This document shows, one piece after another, positions 48,379 to 56,114 of a DNA stretch of 64,000 nt. Both the position numbers and the translations under genes were made by a program. Location of the stretch: contig JBBSPE010000002.1 in assembly GCA_038259155.1 (NCBI GenBank), positions 723 through 64,722 of the forward strand, written 5' to 3'. The stretch is from Gemmatimonadales bacterium (GTDB lineage: Bacteria; Gemmatimonadota; Gemmatimonadetes; Gemmatimonadales; Gemmatimonadaceae). Position 1 is the first letter of the stretch; every line of letters starts with the position of its first letter. The notes under the pieces are model-generated. The model made no database searches, was not told the DNA's origin, and saw nothing but the letters and a program-made list of their open reading frames with translations.

Positions 48379-49575
48379 ATGACTCGATTGACACGAGCGG
48401 TCGCCGGTATTGCGACCGCACTGATGATAGGCCTGCCGTGGCAGGCGGCGCACGCGCAGTGGGTGACCACCGCCGAGCAGTTCTATCCGGGCGGCGCGTG
48501 GAACTGGCGGTTTCTGCGCGTCTATCCGAACTCGGCGCGCCTCTTCAACGCGTTCGACTACGGGCACGCCATCCTGTACGAGGTGCTGTGGCGCCAGCCG
48601 GCCACGCAGGCCATTCCGCGTCTGGAGGAACGGGAGTTTGATTTTCTGGTGAACAAGCTGCTGGTGAATCCTCCGCGCATTCCGCTGGCGGAAGAGTCCG
48701 TGATGCCGTCATACGCGCGGTTGGCGCCGGAAGCGAAAATGATGTTCGAGTGGGCGCACATCCTGCACCGGCAGATCTACGACATCTGGGCCGATGGCCG
48801 GATCAGCACGGACGAAAAGGACGACGAGGTCGCGCGTGTGTTCGAGGCGTACCTGACGCGCCGCGATCTCGCCTTCAGCACGAAGCCCAAGAGCATGCGG
48901 CTCATGCAGGAAATGCCCTACTCGCTCGCGTTCCGGAAGCAGTATCCCAAGTTCAACGGACTGATCTGGGCCTACCACTGGCTGCAGGTCGGGCTGTACG
49001 AACCCATGATCGTGGCTGAGACGCCGTTGGCGCGCGACTCGCTGGTGCGGGCCACGACGGATCGCTTCCGGGCCATGATCGCGGAGGCGCCGTCGCGCAT
49101 GCCGCACGTGATGCCAATGACGGCGGCCGTCGCGCCCGCGTTCGCCGCGCGCTACCCGAGCATCGCCATCGTGTTCGACAACCTGCATTCAATGCACGAT
49201 GTCATCAGCGATATTCTGGCAAACGACAGCGTGCCGCAGAACGCCAAGCGCGCAGAAATTCTGCTGGCCGCGTCACGCTATCGCGACAGTACCTCGTATG
49301 TGATGCCCGACTCGGCGTGGCGCACGATGGCGCGCGAAATGGGTATCGAAAATCAGGGCGGCCCGGCGGTTGGATTCGGCGCCACCTTTCCGACGCCAAC
49401 CGTCACGCGTGGCGCCGTGATGCAGCACGATGATCGCACAGGCCGGCACACCGGTATGGCGTGGGGCGAGATGCTCATGGAGGGCATGGACCACTCGGGC
49501 CGCCTGATGCCGCGTGACACGCTGCCCAATGCGCGCTCGCTCACTCCCGCGCGTTCAGTCTTCCGACGCGAGTAG
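48379..49575 (+). CDS. Secreted helical His-rich protein with Met/His-rich C-terminal tail, hypothetical
   Basis: It has a signal peptide (IGLPWQAAHAQ). Recurrent His-containing helices include FDYGHAILYE, WAHILHRQIYD, YHWLQ and LHSMHDV. The tail reads GAVMQHDDRTGRHTGMAWGEMLMEGMDHSGRLMP. Confidence 0.5.
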   Translation: MTRLTRAVAGIATALMIGLPWQAAHAQWVTTAEQFYPGGAWNWRFLRVYPNSARLFNAFDYGHAILYEVLWRQPATQAIPRLEEREFDFLVNKLLVNPPRIPLAEESVMPSYARLAPEAKMMFEWAHILHRQIYDIWADGRISTDEKDDEVARVFEAYLTRRDLAFSTKPKSMRLMQEMPYSLAFRKQYPKFNGLIWAYHWLQVGLYEPMIVAETPLARDSLVRATTDRFRAMIAEAPSRMPHVMPMTAAVAPAFAARYPSIAIVFDNLHSMHDVISDILANDSVPQNAKRAEILLAASRYRDSTSYVMPDSAWRTMAREMGIENQGGPAVGFGATFPTPTVTRGAVMQHDDRTGRHTGMAWGEMLMEGMDHSGRLMPRDTLPNARSLTPARSVFRRE

Positions 49576-50250
49576 GCCAAGCCGGAGTGCCAGCTTCACG
49601 TAGTCGGTGCGATGCGCGATCCCCAGCTTTTCGTTGATACGCTGCTTGTACGTGTCCACCGTTTTGGGACTGATGGAGAGCCGCGAGCCGATCTCGGGTG
49701 CGGTGTGGCCTTCGGCAAAGAGCTGAAGCACTACCTGCTCGCGATCGGTGAGCCGCTCGAACCGCGCGCGATCATCGGAGTGTTCGTCCTTGCGCGCCAG
49801 GCCGCGTGCGAGCGCGCGGGCGGCCGACGGCTGCACGTAGATGTCGCCGGCCGCAACGGTGCGTACGGCGTCCACCAGCTCGCGCTCGGCCACCGTCTTG
49901 AGCAGGTAGCCAGCGGCACCGGCTTCGAGCAGGGCGACGAGGTGTTCGTCTTCGTTGTGCATGGTGAGCACGAGCACACGCTGCGTGGGGGGCGTGCCGC
50001 GTTCGATCACGCGATCAGCCGCCAACTTGGCGAGCTCGCGCGTGGCGGTGAGTCCGTCCATTTCCGGCATGGACAGATCCATCACCACCACGTGCGGATT
50101 GAGTCGGGCGGCCAACGCGAGTGCCTCCTTGCCCGTGCTCGCCTCGCCGACCACCGTGATGTCCTTGGCGGTCGCCAAGACGGCCGTGAGGCCTGCACGC
50201 ACGATGGCGTGATCGTCCACGAGCACAACGCGAATCAGATCAGGACGCAT
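49555..50250 (-). CDS. NarL/FixJ-family response regulator (REC + LuxR HTH)
   Basis: IRVVLVDDHAIVRAGL...VVMDLSMPEMDG is the REC domain. LTDREQVVLQLFAEGHTAPEIGSRLSISPKTVDTYKQRI is the LuxR-type HTH. Confidence 0.9.
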   Translation of the reverse strand: MRPDLIRVVLVDDHAIVRAGLTAVLATAKDITVVGEASTGKEALALAARLNPHVVVMDLSMPEMDGLTATRELAKLAADRVIERGTPPTQRVLVLTMHNEDEHLVALLEAGAAGYLLKTVAERELVDAVRTVAAGDIYVQPSAARALARGLARKDEHSDDRARFERLTDREQVVLQLFAEGHTAPEIGSRLSISPKTVDTYKQRINEKLGIAHRTDYVKLALRLGLLASED

Positions 50251-50291
50251 GTCGTAATGTCGCGCCGACCGGGTGCAAGCTCAAGGCGGTA

Positions 50292-51374
50292 TCAGCGATC
50301 GAGTTGCTCGAACACCGTTTCGCGACGCGGCGATTGGCGTTCCTGGCGCGGTGGCGAGCGCTTGAAAATCCAGAACAGGTAGACAAAGGACGGCAGCAGG
50401 ATGAGCGTACCGATGCCGAGCACCCCGAGCACGAGCTGCTGTGTGATACGCGGCGCGGCAAGCGATGTGATGCTGTGCGAGGGTGGCAGCAGCCAAGGGA
50501 ATTGTGACCACGCCCATCCCCACAGCAGGAACGACGCCTGTGCGGCTGCGGCCACCACTGCCAGGAGCCAGCGCCGTCGCCACAGCGCCCACACCCCACC
50601 CAGTCCGGCGACCGCCGTGGCGCCGTGCATGCCGATTGCCACCGTCCCCGAGGTGAGGCCCACGAACACCAGCGGCGCTTCGCCGCGAGCGGCGAGAATG
50701 GTCAGCGTGCCGCAGACGAACACCGCCACGGCGGCGAACAGCGCGCGGGTGCGGAAGTCCTCCATGAGAGCCGGGTCCTTGCTCTCCCACGCCAGATAGA
50801 CGGCGGCCAGGTGCGCGAACAGTGCGAGCGTGAGCACGCCGACGGCCACAGTGAACCCGTTCAACCACGGGTCCACGTACACCGTGCGAAATCCGAGCGC
50901 GGGATTTACGACGTCGAGCGGCACGTTGCCGGCGGCGACCGCGCCGAGACACATGCCGAGTACCACGGGGGTGACCACGCTGGCGATCGCGAAGATGCGT
51001 CCCCAGCGTCGTTGGACGACGTCCTCCTTGCTGTCGTAGCTCCGGAAGGTGAAAGCGGAGCCGCGCAGCACGATGCCCACGAGCATGAAGGAAATGGGGA
51101 CGTGCAGCGACGTCGCCAAATGGGCGAAGGCGCGCGGAAAGCAGCTGAACAGGAGGACCACCACCAGAATCAACCAGACGTGATTCGCCTCCCAGATGGG
51201 CCCGATGGCCGTCGCGACCGCCGAACGCTGCGTCTCGCGGCGCGGACCGGTGGCGAGCAGGTCCCAGACGCCGCCACCAAAGTCGGCCCCTGCCAACAGC
51301 ACGTAGGCGTTGAGCGCCAGCACCATGACGCCGGCCACCGCGTGCGGTAGCGTGAAAATCGAGTCCGTGTTCAC
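50292..51374 (-). CDS. cydB: Cytochrome bd ubiquinol oxidase subunit II
   Basis: 360 aa from a GTG that overlaps the cydA stop (GTGA). AYVLLAGADFGGGVWDL is the typical CydB N-terminal motif, followed by 8-9 TM segments. Confidence 0.85.
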   Translation of the reverse strand: MNTDSIFTLPHAVAGVMVLALNAYVLLAGADFGGGVWDLLATGPRRETQRSAVATAIGPIWEANHVWLILVVVLLFSCFPRAFAHLATSLHVPISFMLVGIVLRGSAFTFRSYDSKEDVVQRRWGRIFAIASVVTPVVLGMCLGAVAAGNVPLDVVNPALGFRTVYVDPWLNGFTVAVGVLTLALFAHLAAVYLAWESKDPALMEDFRTRALFAAVAVFVCGTLTILAARGEAPLVFVGLTSGTVAIGMHGATAVAGLGGVWALWRRRWLLAVVAAAAQASFLLWGWAWSQFPWLLPPSHSITSLAAPRITQQLVLGVLGIGTLILLPSFVYLFWIFKRSPPRQERQSPRRETVFEQLDR

Positions 51375-52735
51375 GCGCGGCCCGGCACAACCAGCTCCTC
51401 GGTGAATCGGGCCGCCCCCGGGGCGCCCACGTGCGTCTTCAGGATCTGACGGTACAACAGCCAGACCACCGCCACCGACAGCCCGATGTACAGCAGCGTG
51501 AAGGCGAGGAACGGCACCACGAGCCCGGGCATGGGCGTGACCGCGTCCGCCGTGCGCATCACCCCTTGGATGATCCACGGCTGTCTTCCCACCTCGGTGA
51601 CCGTCCAGCCGGCCTCGATGGCGATGAAGCCGAGGGGTGCCGTGGCCACCAGCGCGCGCAGATACCACACGTGGTCGGGCAGCGGCGTGCCGAGCCCGTG
51701 TCGGCGTCGCCAGGTACGCCCGATCGTCCACACGCCAACCAGCGCCATGAGCACACCGCACGCGACCATGAGCTGGAACGCCACGTGCACCACGCCCACC
51801 GGTGGACGATCGGCGGCGGGCACCGCGTCGAGTCCGGGTACAGCGACGGACGCGTCACCATGCATGAGCAGCGAGATCGCGCCCGGCACCTCGATCGCGA
51901 ATCGGTTGGTGCCCGTGGCGGCATCGGGCCAGCCGCCGATCACGAGCGACATGGGACCGGTATGGTGATGCGCCTCCATCGCCGCCAGCTTCACTGGCTG
52001 CTGCTCCGCCACCACGCGCGCCGCCAGATCGCCGGAGAGCGGTTGCAGCAGCGCCGCCGGCACGCCCACCAGCAGGCCGATGTGCACCGCGGCCCGATGG
52101 AAGGCCGGATATCCCGTGCCGCGGCGCAGGGCCAGCGCGTGGATGCCGGCCGTGGCGAAGCCCGTGGCGGCGTACGCGGCCAATGTCATGTGCAGCACCT
52201 GCGAGAAGGCCGCCGGATTGAGCATCGCGGCGATCGGGTCCACGTTGCTGACCACGCCGTCCGTGAGCGTGAAGCCGGTCGGACTGTTCATCCAGGCATT
52301 GGCGGTGACCACGAACGCGCCAGAGAGCGCGCCGCTCACGGCCACGACGACGCCCGCCGCGAGGTGTGCGCGCGTCGAGATGCGGTCCCAGGCATACAAA
52401 TAGATGCCCAGAAAGATGGCCTCGGTGAAGAACGCGAGGCCTTCCAGGGAGAACGGCATGCCGATGATGCCGCCCGCGTGCTCCATGAAACCGGGCCAGA
52501 GCAGGCCAAGCTCGAAGGAGAGCACCGTGCCGGACACCGCGCCCACGGCGAACAGGATGGCCGTGCCCTTGGCCCAGCGCTTCGCCAGTTCCTTGAGCAG
52601 CGGCTCGCCGCGCCGCAGGTAGCGGTACTCAGCGATCACCATGAGCGCCGGCATGCCGATGCCGACCACAGCGAACAGGATGTGGAAGCCGAGCGACATC
52701 GCCATCTGACTGCGTGCAGCAAGCAGGTCGTTCAC
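51371..52735 (-). CDS. cydA: Cytochrome bd ubiquinol oxidase subunit I
   Basis: LARSQMAMSLGFHILFA, the Q-loop region and GWTVTEVGRQPW are CydA hallmarks. Confidence 0.9.
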   Translation of the reverse strand: MNDLLAARSQMAMSLGFHILFAVVGIGMPALMVIAEYRYLRRGEPLLKELAKRWAKGTAILFAVGAVSGTVLSFELGLLWPGFMEHAGGIIGMPFSLEGLAFFTEAIFLGIYLYAWDRISTRAHLAAGVVVAVSGALSGAFVVTANAWMNSPTGFTLTDGVVSNVDPIAAMLNPAAFSQVLHMTLAAYAATGFATAGIHALALRRGTGYPAFHRAAVHIGLLVGVPAALLQPLSGDLAARVVAEQQPVKLAAMEAHHHTGPMSLVIGGWPDAATGTNRFAIEVPGAISLLMHGDASVAVPGLDAVPAADRPPVGVVHVAFQLMVACGVLMALVGVWTIGRTWRRRHGLGTPLPDHVWYLRALVATAPLGFIAIEAGWTVTEVGRQPWIIQGVMRTADAVTPMPGLVVPFLAFTLLYIGLSVAVVWLLYRQILKTHVGAPGAARFTEELVVPGRA

Positions 52736-52778: not shown

Positions 52779-53180
52779 TCAACCGGCCATCGCCGCCTTG
52801 AGGCGTGCGCGCATGGTGAACAGCTCGGCGTTCTGATTCGGATTCAGCTTGATGATGTCCTCGAGCAGCTTGAGGATCGTGGTGTCGTCCTCCACGCTCG
52901 TGGGCTCGGCGCTCAACCGCACGCCGAAGCCGAAATGCTGGCCCGGCAGGAGAATCATTTCTTTTTCGAGCGCCACGTCGCTCATGTCGTCGGCGATGCG
53001 GACGGCCACGAAGTTCTTGCCGACCTGTTCCATGTAGCACACGCGCAGCCCGTTGGCGGCCGCGGGCCATGGCTGGTATGGGTGCATCCGGCCATCGGTT
53101 CCGCGGAACTCGCTGGTCGTGTTGCTCAGCTCGGGGAAGTTGGTCTCGAAGGCACCGACGTAGAGCAGGGCGTGTCGCAT
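52779..53180 (-). CDS. Unknown protein, paralogue A (133 aa), first of two tandem paralogues upstream of cydA
   Basis: I prefer the internal start MRHALLYVGAFETNFPELSN because paralogue B starts with the same MRHAL motif. There is no signal peptide or TM segment, and I recognise no family. Confidence 0.6.
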   Translation of the reverse strand: MRHALLYVGAFETNFPELSNTTSEFRGTDGRMHPYQPWPAAANGLRVCYMEQVGKNFVAVRIADDMSDVALEKEMILLPGQHFGFGVRLSAEPTSVEDDTTILKLLEDIIKLNPNQNAELFTMRARLKAAMAG

Positions 53181-53208
53181 GACAGAATCGGGCAGAAGAA
53201 ATGGAAAT

Positions 53209-53237
53209 CCGGACGGCGGAATCACCGCGCCGTCCGG
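53209..53237 (-). terminator. Intercistronic GC hairpin followed by a U-rich tract between paralogues B and A (attenuator/partial terminator candidate)
   Basis: A perfect 10-bp stem (ccggacggcg / cgccgtccgg) with a 9-nt loop. On the transcribed minus strand it is followed by AUUUCCAUUUCUUCU, 28 nt before the paralogue A ATG. Confidence 0.45.
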
Positions 53238-53260
53238 TGCTACAGGGAGGAGCACGCCGC

Positions 53261-53671
53261 TCAGGCGCGCTTCTTGCTCGCGTTGGACTTGAAGCGTGCG
53301 CGCATGTTCAGCAGCTCCGGCCCTTGGTCGAGATTCTTCTTGGCAATGTCCTCGAGCAGCTTCATGATGGCAATATCGTCTTCCACGCTGGTGGGCTCGC
53401 CACTCAGGCGCACGCCAAAGCCGAAGTGCTCTCCGGGCACCAGCACCACCTCGTTCTCCAGGACCACGTCACTCACATCATCGGCCACGCGGACCGCCAC
53501 GAACTTCTTGCCCGTCTTCTCCATGAAGCAGAAGCGCAGACCATTGGCACTGTCCGGCCACGCCGGGTAGGGATGCATGCCGCCGTCGCTGCCCTCGAAC
53601 GTAGTGGTGGTGTTGGTGAGGTTCGGGAAGTTCCGTTCAAAGGCACCGACGTACATGAGCGCGTGTCGCAT
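53261..53671 (-). CDS. Unknown protein, paralogue B (136 aa)
   Basis: The start is MRHALMYVGAFERNFPNLTN. By hand alignment, 89 of the first 128 positions are identical to paralogue A. Confidence 0.6.
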   Translation of the reverse strand: MRHALMYVGAFERNFPNLTNTTTTFEGSDGGMHPYPAWPDSANGLRFCFMEKTGKKFVAVRVADDVSDVVLENEVVLVPGEHFGFGVRLSGEPTSVEDDIAIMKLLEDIAKKNLDQGPELLNMRARFKSNASKKRA

Positions 53672-53911
53672 AGGTCTCTGATGGGGTGAGAGGATGGCCC
53701 GGGACGCCGCGGGGACGCCGTGTTCGGGAGGAACATTACGCCGAGGAGGCCAATCCCGCACCTCCGGCGAACGGTCTGGAGCATCGAAGCCGCCACGTTC
53801 GCGACAGTTCGGGGGTGGTGGGCTTGTGTTTCGCACGGCAAAGGCTGACCCTTCCACGACAGGTTTTCACAGGGCTCTTCCCGCGTTCCTTCCCCTGTCC
53901 AGGAGCTGACG

Positions 53912-54448
53912 ATGCCGTCATCCCCTCTCCCGATCAGCTCGCTGCAGTCGCTTACCATCCCGCTCGAGCGTGATGTCTTTCTGCGGTCCATGCTGCGCGA
54001 ACTCGCCGGCACTTTGCAGGACGTCGTCGGGCTGGACGAGGCCGGTGGATTCATCAGCGTGGTGGGACAGCGCATCGGCGACGATCTCAACGCCAGCTAC
54101 CGGACCGCGCTCGACGTCCCGAGACTGAACCGTCCGCAGGTCGCCGAGGTGCTCGTGGACCTCAAACAGCGCATCCAGGGCGGATTCCGGGTGGTCGAAC
54201 AGGACGACACGCGAATCGTCTTTGCCAACACGGCCTGCCCATTCGCCGAGAAGGTCATTGGCCGGCCGGCGCTCTGCATGATGACGTCGAATGTATTTGG
54301 CAGCATTGCGGCGGAGAATCTGGGGTTCGCCAAGGTCGTGCTCGAGGAAACCATTGCGCAGGGCGATGCCGGATGCCGTGTGGTGGTGCACCTGCAGCAC
54401 ACGCCGGAGTGTGAGCTGGCAGAGGGACGCGAGTACTTCCAGGGCTGA
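53912..54448 (+). CDS. Small sensor/output-like protein (methanogen-output-domain-1 / V4R-like)
   Basis: 178 aa. [14 protein letters not shown]...[24 protein letters not shown]...[31 protein letters not shown] matches my memory of 'methanogen output domain 1' proteins found next to histidine kinases. This is not verified. Confidence 0.5.
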
Positions 54449-54452
54449 GCAC

Positions 54453-56114
54453 GTGATCCCCACGCAGTTCGTCGCCGTGACCGAGTGGCTGCCGGAGGCG
54501 ATGATCCTGATCACTCGCGAGGGCATCATCACGGGAGCGAATCGCGCCGCTTGCCAGCTGCTCGGGATCCCGGCGTTGCCGACGGAGCCCTTCTCCATTC
54601 ACGACGCACTGCACGAGAGCAGCAGCGATCTCCGGGGCTATCTGCGCGACGCGGCGCGGACGCGCCAGCCCATGCCGGGACGGCTGACGCTTCGGGGAGA
54701 CGAGGGAGCACCGCTTCCGTTCCGCACCACGGCCCGCCTCGTGCAGCCGGCCGGTCCTGATCGGCGCGCGCTCTTGCTGGTGCACCTGCTCCCCAAGGGG
54801 GGCGCGCACACGCAGTTCAAGCTGCTCACGGAACGCGTTGAGCAGCTGAGCGTCGAGATCCAGCGGCGCCAGCGCGCTGAAGAGGAACGGCGCACCCTCG
54901 AAACGCAGATGCTGCAGACCCAAAAGTTGGAGAGCCTCGGCGTACTCGCTGGCGGCATCGCGCACGACTTCAACAACCTGCTCACCAGCATCATTGGCTA
55001 CTGCGACCTCGCCCGCGGAGAAGTAGCGCCAGCGGCGCCAGCGGCGGCGTTTCTGGACGAAGCCGTGAACGGGGCCCGTCGTGCCGCCGAGCTCACGCAG
55101 CAGATGCTCGCCTATGCCGGCAAGGGGCGCTTCATCGTGGAGCCGGTGGTCCTCTCCTCGCTCGTGGACGACATTGCGCGCCTGCTCGAGGTGTCCATTT
55201 CCAAGCGCTGCGTGCTGCGCTATCACCTGCTCGCGGAACTGCCGGCCTGCCAAGCGGACGCCACCCAGATGCGGCAGGTGATCATGAATCTGATCATCAA
55301 CGCATCCGACGCCATCGGCGATCGCAGCGGAGTCATCTCGCTCACCACCGGCGTTGCGTGGTGCGATCAGGAGTACCTCACCGACAATCATGTGGACGAC
55401 GACCTGCCGGAGGGACTCTATGTCCATTTGGAGGTCGCAGACACGGGGGTGGGCATGACCGCCGAAACGCGCCGGCGCATCTTCGATCCGTTCTTCACCA
55501 CCAAGTTCACGGGACGCGGGCTCGGACTGGCGGCGGTGCTTGGCATCGTGCGCAGTCATGGCGGCTCTATCCGGGTGTACAGCGAGATTGGACGCGGCAC
55601 CTCGTTCAAGATCCTCCTGCCCGCTATTGACCAGACGATTTCCAGGGACGCGACCGGCACCGCGGCCGAACCCGAGTGGAATGGACGCGGCACCGTGCTG
55701 GTCGTGGACGACGAAGAAAGCATTCGGGGCCTGACGAAACACATGCTCCGCAAGGTCGGCTTCGATGTGATCACGGCGAGTGACGGCCGCGAGGCACTGG
55801 AGCTGTTCCGGGCTGATCCGTCGCGCATTGCGCTGGTGCTGCTCGACCTCACCATGCCGCATCTCGATGGCGCGGCCACGTTTCGCGAGCTCCGCCGCAT
55901 CCAACCGGGCGTTCGCGCCATTCTCATGAGCGGTTACAACGAGCAGACGGTTACCGCACAGTTCGCCGGCAAGGGCATAGCCGGCTTCATCCAAAAGCCG
56001 TTCCGGGTCTCACAGCTGCGGGACGCCGTTCAAGCGGCACTGGGCGAGCCCGTAGCGCCGCTGGCTGAACGCGCCGCTCAACGCCCCGCTCAACGCCCGA
56101 TCGAAACCGGTTAA
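54453..56114 (+). CDS. Soluble hybrid sensor histidine kinase (PAS - HisKA - HATPase - REC)
   Basis: The GTG start lies 5 nt after the upstream stop. It has a PAS-like N-terminus, an H-box (GGIAHDFNNLLT), N/G boxes (NLIINASDA, DTGVGM, GLGLAAV) and a C-terminal receiver (VLVVDDEE...LLDLTMPHLDG). No TM segment is present. Confidence 0.85.
   Translation: MIPTQFVAVTEWLPEAMILITREGIITGANRAACQLLGIPALPTEPFSIHDALHESSSDLRGYLRDAARTRQPMPGRLTLRGDEGAPLPFRTTARLVQPAGPDRRALLLVHLLPKGGAHTQFKLLTERVEQLSVEIQRRQRAEEERRTLETQMLQTQKLESLGVLAGGIAHDFNNLLTSIIGYCDLARGEVAPAAPAAAFLDEAVNGARRAAELTQQMLAYAGKGRFIVEPVVLSSLVDDIARLLEVSISKRCVLRYHLLAELPACQADATQMRQVIMNLIINASDAIGDRSGVISLTTGVAWCDQEYLTDNHVDDDLPEGLYVHLEVADTGVGMTAETRRRIFDPFFTTKFTGRGLGLAAVLGIVRSHGGSIRVYSEIGRGTSFKILLPAIDQTISRDATGTAAEPEWNGRGTVLVVDDEESIRGLTKHMLRKVGFDVITASDGREALELFRADPSRIALVLLDLTMPHLDGAATFRELRRIQPGVRAILMSGYNEQTVTAQFAGKGIAGFIQKPFRVSQLRDAVQAALGEPVAPLAERAAQRPAQRPIETG

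Follow-up and report, generated by a model that had tools for sequence, protein, structure and literature searches.

Tandem proteins encoded upstream of a Gemmatimonadales cytochrome bd operon are candidate nucleic-acid-binding relatives of restriction-nuclease modules

Why should two copies of a small soluble protein lead a cytochrome bd oxidase operon? The question is raised by a 64,000-nucleotide (nt) stretch of contig JBBSPE010000002.1 from a Gemmatimonadales bacterium (assembly GCA_038259155.1), hereafter the window, in which gene B (53261..53671, minus strand; 136 amino acids by open reading frame [ORF] and translation) and gene A (52779..53180, minus strand; 133 amino acids by ORF) precede cydAB, B being the cydA-distal and A the cydA-proximal copy. 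A sequence-only reading of this DNA had taken them for tandem paralogs of about 135 amino acids. This description stands: both ORFs are present, and a gapless BLASTP alignment finds 89 identities over 129 positions (69%; E = 4e-66), the same number that had been counted by hand. The answer that we favor, tentatively and at somewhat less than an even chance, is that A and B are nucleic-acid-binding paralogs and that A regulates the unit formed by cydAB and the neighboring response regulator gene.

The clue to such an activity comes from distant relatives. An exhaustive search of 1.84 billion representative proteins, using a profile built from Gemmatimonadota-type sequences only, gave 156 matches at E <= 1e-3, and in multidomain proteins the profile matched the N-terminal ~125 residues (E = 8e-14 to 2e-4). 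Thirteen longer matches carry the domain at the N terminus and an HNH nuclease (PF01844 or PF13391) at the C terminus. The C-terminal half of P0155 fits the PADLOC model for McrA-like type IV enzymes (2.8e-30), while the HNH domain of P0140, a protein from a Gemmatimonadaceae metagenome-assembled genome, matches EcoKMcrA (6ghc), and the P0140 cluster has a member annotated as 5-methylcytosine-specific restriction protein A. Cultured sources of the HNH-fused form are Anaeromyxobacter terrae and A. soli, whose “HNH endonuclease” proteins (WP_242343606.1 and WP_243337493.1) belong to the P0162 cluster. The domain of several short McrA-like fusions, which consist of the domain and HNH only, is strongly basic (+6 to +15). 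The partners extend beyond HNH: P0189 has a PD-(D/E)xK-like C terminus (judged by eye), P0171 is a fusion of the domain with a Walker-A ATPase fragment, and the gene for P0208 (210 amino acids) immediately precedes those for an AAA_5 ATPase (PADLOC PDC-M26A, E = 6.8e-58) and a DUF2357-PDDEXK_7 McrC-like protein. P0179, in turn, adjoins a ParB_N protein in a defense island with Mrr-like, DUF1016, and Gabija-like genes. At the level of sequence, these matches establish the A/B domain as a homolog both of a noncatalytic N-terminal module of McrA-like HNH nucleases and of a small subunit encoded beside an McrB-like AAA+ ATPase and an McrC-like nuclease. Such relatives point away from the roles that the sequence-only reading had offered as candidates, namely, a soluble partner, a chaperone, a factor handling heme or oxygen/NO, or a self-assembling protein.

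A domain that is combined, as here, with two nuclease types and an McrB-like motor is usually a target-recognition module. Since it is such a module that holds this position in these enzymes, nucleic-acid binding is the most likely activity of A and B. A type IV restriction enzyme combines a nuclease with a domain that confers specificity (PMC11090510), and in two further papers the noncatalytic module at this position in type IV enzymes is the specificity domain (PMC7145662, PMC7897488). Likewise, a preprint describes a separate DNA-binding subunit in three-gene McrBC-like systems (10.64898/2026.08.31.748284). Set against the N-terminal specificity domains of HNH type IV enzymes (NEco of EcoKMcrA; EVE and SRA of VcaM4I and TagI), our domain occupies the same N-terminal place in 13 distant homologs. 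It shows, however, no sequence or fold likeness to NEco, EVE, SRA, YTH, or ASCH: the best Foldseek value, that of VcaM4I (6yex_B), was a template modeling (TM) score of 0.34 with E = 2.8, and EcoKMcrA (6ghc) matches through its HNH part only. Also unlike type IV enzymes, the window proteins come without a nuclease partner; stand-alone versions of reader domains also exist in the PUA superfamily. A similar comparison holds for the subunits of three-gene McrBC-like systems (LlaI.R1, LlaJI.R1) and for the McrB N-terminal domain, in that P0208 takes the same place before an ATPase and a nuclease and P0171 is fused to an ATPase fragment, but the domain has no detectable fold relation to any solved structure, McrB included, and nothing of the kind lies near A and B in the window. 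As to the P0208 cassette itself (L094, 8001-11530), it is a three-gene, McrBC-like one in a cluster of defense genes, with AbiE and NERD-UvrD genes nearby; P0208 consists of the domain and a three-helix tail, weakly winged-helix-like, and PDC-M26A is a candidate system in PADLOC.

What kind of protein, then, is the stand-alone form? The AlphaFold2 model of A (predicted local distance difference test [pLDDT] score, 94.5; predicted TM score, 0.88) has seven strands (residues 3-10, 24-26, 32-34, 46-52, 56-63, 68-76, and 94-96), a short helix at 11-17, and a final pair of helices at 99-112 and 114-132, which bears out the earlier expectation of a beta-rich N-terminal stretch of about 100 residues followed by a helix. 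Strands and helices follow in the same order in the model of the distant member P0208 (core pLDDT, ~97). Fold novelty was judged against solved (PDB) and viral (BFVD) structures: Foldseek found no significant neighbor of the A model in PDB and BFVD (best PDB match, E = 0.2, TM score <=0.34) and none of the P0208 model in PDB. Both PDB searches returned weak, short matches to the SAS-6 head domain (35 to 42 columns, E > 0.1), which we rejected. PUA-superfamily reader domains (EVE, SRA, YTH, ASCH) gave neither a profile match nor a significant Foldseek match for either model.

Pfam gave no match to A or B, and NCBIfam and PDB sequences yielded only subthreshold similarity to AmoB/PmoB. This cupredoxin candidate scored E = 0.012-0.028 against a model with a 336-bit cutoff and about 1 (up to 1.2) against PDB; a broader profile loses the similarity, and we therefore treat it as chance. 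Searches of PDB sequences with single distant members found nothing for the domain, tblastn searches of plasmid and phage collections with two distant members had no match, and the literature that we searched contained no description of the family. The A/B family is thus uncatalogued, being absent from Pfam, NCBIfam, and PDB, much as the sequence-only reading, which could not place the proteins in any family, had left it. Close relatives are nonetheless numerous: 56 were found among 5.8 billion proteins (E = 1e-83 to 1e-18), with source names reading “hypothetical protein” and one labeled Gemmatimonadaceae, and a scan of one genome per species found 209, nearly all of them from Gemmatimonadaceae or Gemmatimonadales among the 80 listed. 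As judged from these searches, the stand-alone form of the domain is characteristic of Gemmatimonadota.

The family signature, over a full-length match of ~130 amino acids, comprises M-R-H-A-L-x-Y-x-G-x-F-E-x-N, YME-x-GK-x-F-x-AVR, His82, and Asn113. A and B hold every invariant column of the family alignment (A1), which makes them members of this stand-alone MRHAL family. Across the superfamily, His3 is invariant (59 of 59 sequences of the broad alignment), conservation is 90% or more for Y7, G9, G44, M50, V60, H82, D108, and N113, and nearly all of the proteins open with the domain itself, as M-x-H. In A and B, His3 is encoded at 53172-53174 and 53663-53665 of the window, respectively, on the minus strand. 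The invariant His3 suggested an ATCUN-like amino-terminal X-X-His metal site; this candidate was set aside, residue 2 often being Thr or Pro and some N termini being longer.

Both genes are real and maintained. The MRHAL start is kept in more than 50 homologs, so the start codons of A and B are right, and ratios of nonsynonymous to synonymous substitutions (dN/dS, Nei-Gojobori) of 0.10-0.34 between ortholog pairs and 0.20 between A and B mark both as coding genes held by purifying selection. B orthologs in public gene calls begin at the internal Met6 (131 amino acids), as seen at L088 7512-7922, L090 1027-1437, and L096 1320-1715, where the conserved MRHAL start gives 136; because of these calls, the protein collection has no entry for full-length B. 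The expectation of soluble proteins also held, since a hydropathy scan of A and B found no transmembrane or hydrophobic segment (highest Kyte-Doolittle 19-residue means, 0.69 for A and 0.97 for B).

How close, then, is the tie to the bd oxidase? In the window, the order B-A-cydA-cydB-NarL regulator is confirmed, all on the minus strand, and A and B do stand directly upstream of cydA with the 43-nt gap that had been described. cydA (subunit I; 51371..52735, minus strand) has a GTG start and matches PF01654 at E = 1.6e-139. cydB (subunit II; 50292..51374, minus strand) was located by its ORF and by tblastn mapping, and its ortholog at L087 has PF02322; the NarL/LuxR-type response regulator (49555..50250, minus strand) has the Pfam domains Response_reg and GerE. 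Spacers measure 80 nt between B and A, 43 nt between A and cydA, and 41 nt between cydB and the regulator gene, and cydA and cydB overlap by 4 nt (51371-51374, GTGA), the start of cydB lying on the stop of cydA. The cydB-regulator gap (50251-50291) is only 41 nt and so leaves no room for a cydX-like small ORF 3' of cydB.

Elsewhere, this arrangement is the exception. Our genome survey covered 86 loci (L001-L086) with exactly one family copy each, and in none of them (0/86) did cydA or cydB lie within 6 kb of the family gene. A further 80 loci came from metagenomes, 63 of them informative in having at least 400 nt downstream, and none of these 63 had a cydA of either type near the family gene; over the two sets, the distance considered was 4-6 kb. 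Clustering of the neighbors at the 86 loci gave no universal neighbor, the largest cluster comprising 12 loci and the downstream genes being very diverse. A hairpin with z < -2 lies directly 3' of free-standing family genes at 40 of 77 loci, so the family gene usually ends its own transcription unit.

Even close relatives of the window differ. L087 has one A-type copy followed by cydA, cydB, and the regulator gene, whereas L088/L089 and L090/L091 have B, A, and the regulator gene, the latter ~20 nt from A, and no cydAB. The flanking genes at L088 match those of the window, the block being syntenic throughout, so that cydAB was either inserted into this block or deleted from it. The regulator orthologs are 83-87% identical and stand directly after A at L088 and L090 and after cydAB at L087; the regulator is the only gene to lie downstream of the A-type copy in 4/4 related genomes. 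We had regarded the cydAB linkage as purely local, a view that was dropped once a second lineage showed the same adjacency: the genes for the deep-branching proteins P0052 (L097) and P0050 (L099) lie 30 and 105 nt upstream of cydA-cydB, co-oriented and with different flanks. The CydA proteins of these loci are only 32-33% identical to that of the window, whereas their family proteins share 51-58% identity with A and B (stretches compared: L097 7433-9828, L099 6829-9226, and window 50292-52735). Such differing CydA proteins under similar family genes suggest either in-place replacement of the oxidase or independent recruitment. Because the same PolB gene lies downstream at L097 and L099, these loci were counted as one lineage, so that, on these gene neighborhoods, there are two independent cyd-linked lineages, namely, the window with L087 and P0050/P0052. 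The adjacency of family and cydAB is accordingly rare but recurrent and probably not accidental, and the family is not a dedicated component of cyd operons. Of the tie to the bd oxidase that the sequence-only reading had drawn, the recurrence in P0050/P0052 survives; a dedicated tie does not, given the unlinked genome and metagenome loci and the pairs kept without cydAB at L088 and L090.

Do the two copies play the same part? Downstream of B, the B-A spacer (fold energy, -37.4 kcal/mol) contains a hairpin (53209..53237, minus strand) with a perfect G+C-rich stem of 10 bp (12 pairs in the predicted fold) and then a U-rich tract, resembling a terminator or attenuator. It narrowly fails the T-run rule of a simple terminator scanner, and hairpins of different G+C-rich sequence occupy the same place after B in L088 and L090. 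Because this strong hairpin, conserved in position, follows B, the single operon from B to the regulator gene that had been proposed is doubtful; read-through at the hairpin is possible. The A-cydA spacer shows no significant structure (z = +1.0), as is true wherever a family gene precedes cydA (z = +1.0, +1.8, +0.4, and -1.5), and since no terminator separates A from cydA, A is probably cotranscribed with cydAB and the NarL regulator gene. Upstream of B, an alignment of the corresponding regions revealed the motif GGCGTAATGTTCCTC (53728..53742, minus strand), which is unique in the window, lies ~60-70 nt before the B start, and recurs upstream of the B orthologs in L088-L091 despite a different upstream gene. 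It is possibly a promoter element containing a -10 box or an operator.

The proteins themselves have diverged at different rates. B is 83-87% identical to its orthologs in L088 and L090 (dN/dS ~0.12), has at its C terminus the basic tail KSNASKKRA, a usual feature of the family, and falls among typical members in a neighbor-joining tree. A is 67-78% identical to the A-type orthologs (L087, L088, L090; dN/dS 0.22-0.34), so that its nonsynonymous evolution is two to three times faster, and ends in AMAG, without the basic tail. The lone L087 copy is A-type by its signatures (YQPWP, TTILKLLED, and an AMGK tail), but the neighbor-joining tree places it with B. We conclude from these comparisons that B is the ordinary family gene and A a specialized duplicate belonging with cydAB and the regulator gene.

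In the reading that we favor, the activity of A and B, soluble single-domain proteins in which two C-terminal helices follow a beta core of seven strands, would be noncatalytic: they would bind specifically to DNA, which may be modified, or to RNA. B is the ordinary copy, with its own conserved upstream element and terminator-like hairpin. A, the faster-evolving duplicate that lost its basic C-terminal tail, would share a transcript with cydAB and the NarL-type regulator gene and would act as a regulatory nucleic-acid-binding factor for this unit, possibly in concert with B or the regulator, and not as a subunit of the oxidase. A and B are not part of a restriction system but may work like a specificity module. 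Several observations weigh against this proposal. Neither a nuclease domain in A or B nor a nuclease neighbor in the window was found. In the Gemmatimonadota clade, the core is acidic (median charge of about -3.6 over residues 1-112; isoelectric point of A, 5.3), and HFGFGVRLSGEP stands where the nuclease-linked clade has its H-x-DGKGFGP loop, so that the ligand may have changed. Foldseek searches with the A and P0208 models gave no significant match to a known DNA-binding or reader fold. Finally, the linkage to the regulator gene is weak as evidence of function, the block being syntenic throughout, and the cotranscription of A with this unit is predicted from the spacers.

The main rival makes A, and possibly B, a soluble accessory protein of the bd oxidase that would help to assemble the enzyme, deliver its cofactors, protect it, or regulate it at the protein level and that would be coexpressed with it because it acts on it. 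We consider this unlikely, yet recurrent adjacency keeps it alive: in two lineages that differ in CydA and flanks, a family gene stands immediately upstream of, and co-oriented with, cydAB, and a rough estimate, assuming a few dozen independent neighborhoods and 1-2 cydA genes per genome, would put the expected number of chance adjacencies far below 1. The spacers free of terminator-like structure fit as well, and the conserved His3, His82, Met50, and Tyr7 are residue types able to bind heme or metals. But the proteins have neither a heme-binding motif nor a membrane anchor, and homology to restriction-nuclease modules is hard to square with an oxidase-specific role. Moreover, the B-A pair is kept without cydAB at L088 and L090, and 149 loci (86 from genomes and 63 informative ones from metagenomes) have no cydA nearby even though cydAB is common in Gemmatimonadota (PMC10581226). 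The proteins do not resemble the established accessory subunits either, as had been noted from the sequence. CydX, CydS, and the CydH/CydY class are small peptides, a few tens of residues long with one transmembrane segment, located in the oxidase complex; they are likewise encoded next to cydAB, but A and B have 133 and 136 amino acids, are globular in the AlphaFold2 model, lack any hydrophobic segment, are encoded upstream of cydA, and belong to a family that is unlinked to cydAB in most genomes.

Rather improbable, in our view, is that the domain senses a small molecule, a metal, or redox state, gating nucleases in the fused proteins and buffering or sensing the ligand in its stand-alone form, with the cyd and two-component neighbors reflecting a link to redox or oxygen. 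The conservation pattern would suit such a sensor, His3 being invariant and His82, Met50, and Tyr7 nearly so across very divergent members and the domain sitting almost always at the extreme N terminus, as M-x-H. So would the acidic core and the neighbors in the window, namely, a bd oxidase, a NarL regulator, and a PAS hybrid kinase. Some of the nucleases also appear to contain other modules resembling DNA readers (EVE-like in P0140 and winged-helix-like in P0117), which leaves room for a non-DNA role of the domain. However, the domain matches no known ligand-binding family, the weak AmoB/PmoB matches (E = 0.012 to 1.2) being lost with the broader profile; the variable residue 2 means that a strict X-X-His metal site is not conserved; and the charge of +6 to +15 in the several short McrA-like fusions that have only the domain and HNH fits DNA binding.

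That the family descends from a defense module since domesticated or in decay, with a general housekeeping role or none and with its cydAB position an accident kept by synteny, is quite improbable: highly variable neighborhoods (largest cluster, 12/86 loci), a gene that is usually monocistronic with its own hairpin, and the synteny with L088 of the whole block around the window genes would agree with it, but both copies are under strong purifying selection, the family is kept across hundreds of Gemmatimonadota genomes, and a second lineage, with another type of CydA, shows the adjacency to cydAB as well.

If the favored reading of A and B as nucleic-acid-binding proteins is true, an uncatalogued domain without a recognizable fold would be a new target-recognition module for modification-dependent restriction enzymes, and a little-studied phylum that is abundant in soil would have retained it throughout in conserved, stand-alone form. 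We regard it as a candidate new specificity-type domain with stand-alone housekeeping relatives. Its recurrent placement before two different bd-oxidase operons is a testable lead on how Gemmatimonadota control respiration at low oxygen. A bolder version, which we hold to be a long shot, is that type IV nucleases and the Gemmatimonadota proteins share a new fold that reads a DNA modification or a redox-linked ligand and that the A-type paralog couples this signal to the bd oxidase in some lineages; if true, it would add a previously unseen layer of control to microaerobic respiration.

On the upstream side of B and divergent to it, the window encodes a stand-alone MetOD1 (methanogen output domain 1) protein and then a PAS hybrid kinase (53912-56114, plus strand). 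The kinase has the architecture PAS-HisKA-HATPase-receiver, and its longest ORF overlaps the MetOD1 gene; the pair could be the sensor partner of the NarL-type regulator. Both genes are missing at the syntenic position of L088, where DUF4097 abuts B. An Rfam scan of the 64-kb window found no RNA family. Among the metagenome loci, a sub-clade of the family has another neighbor: at 11 of the 80 loci (L141, L143, L148, L149, L157, L166, L172, L173, L175, L177, and L180), the family gene is followed, 3-72 nt on, by a co-oriented gene for a secreted protein. This protein has ~370-545 amino acids where complete, no Pfam match, and the motif QTESDAYTRYELLAPGS-KFRI-YEVTA, and, going by gene order, it is a second lineage-specific partner of the family.

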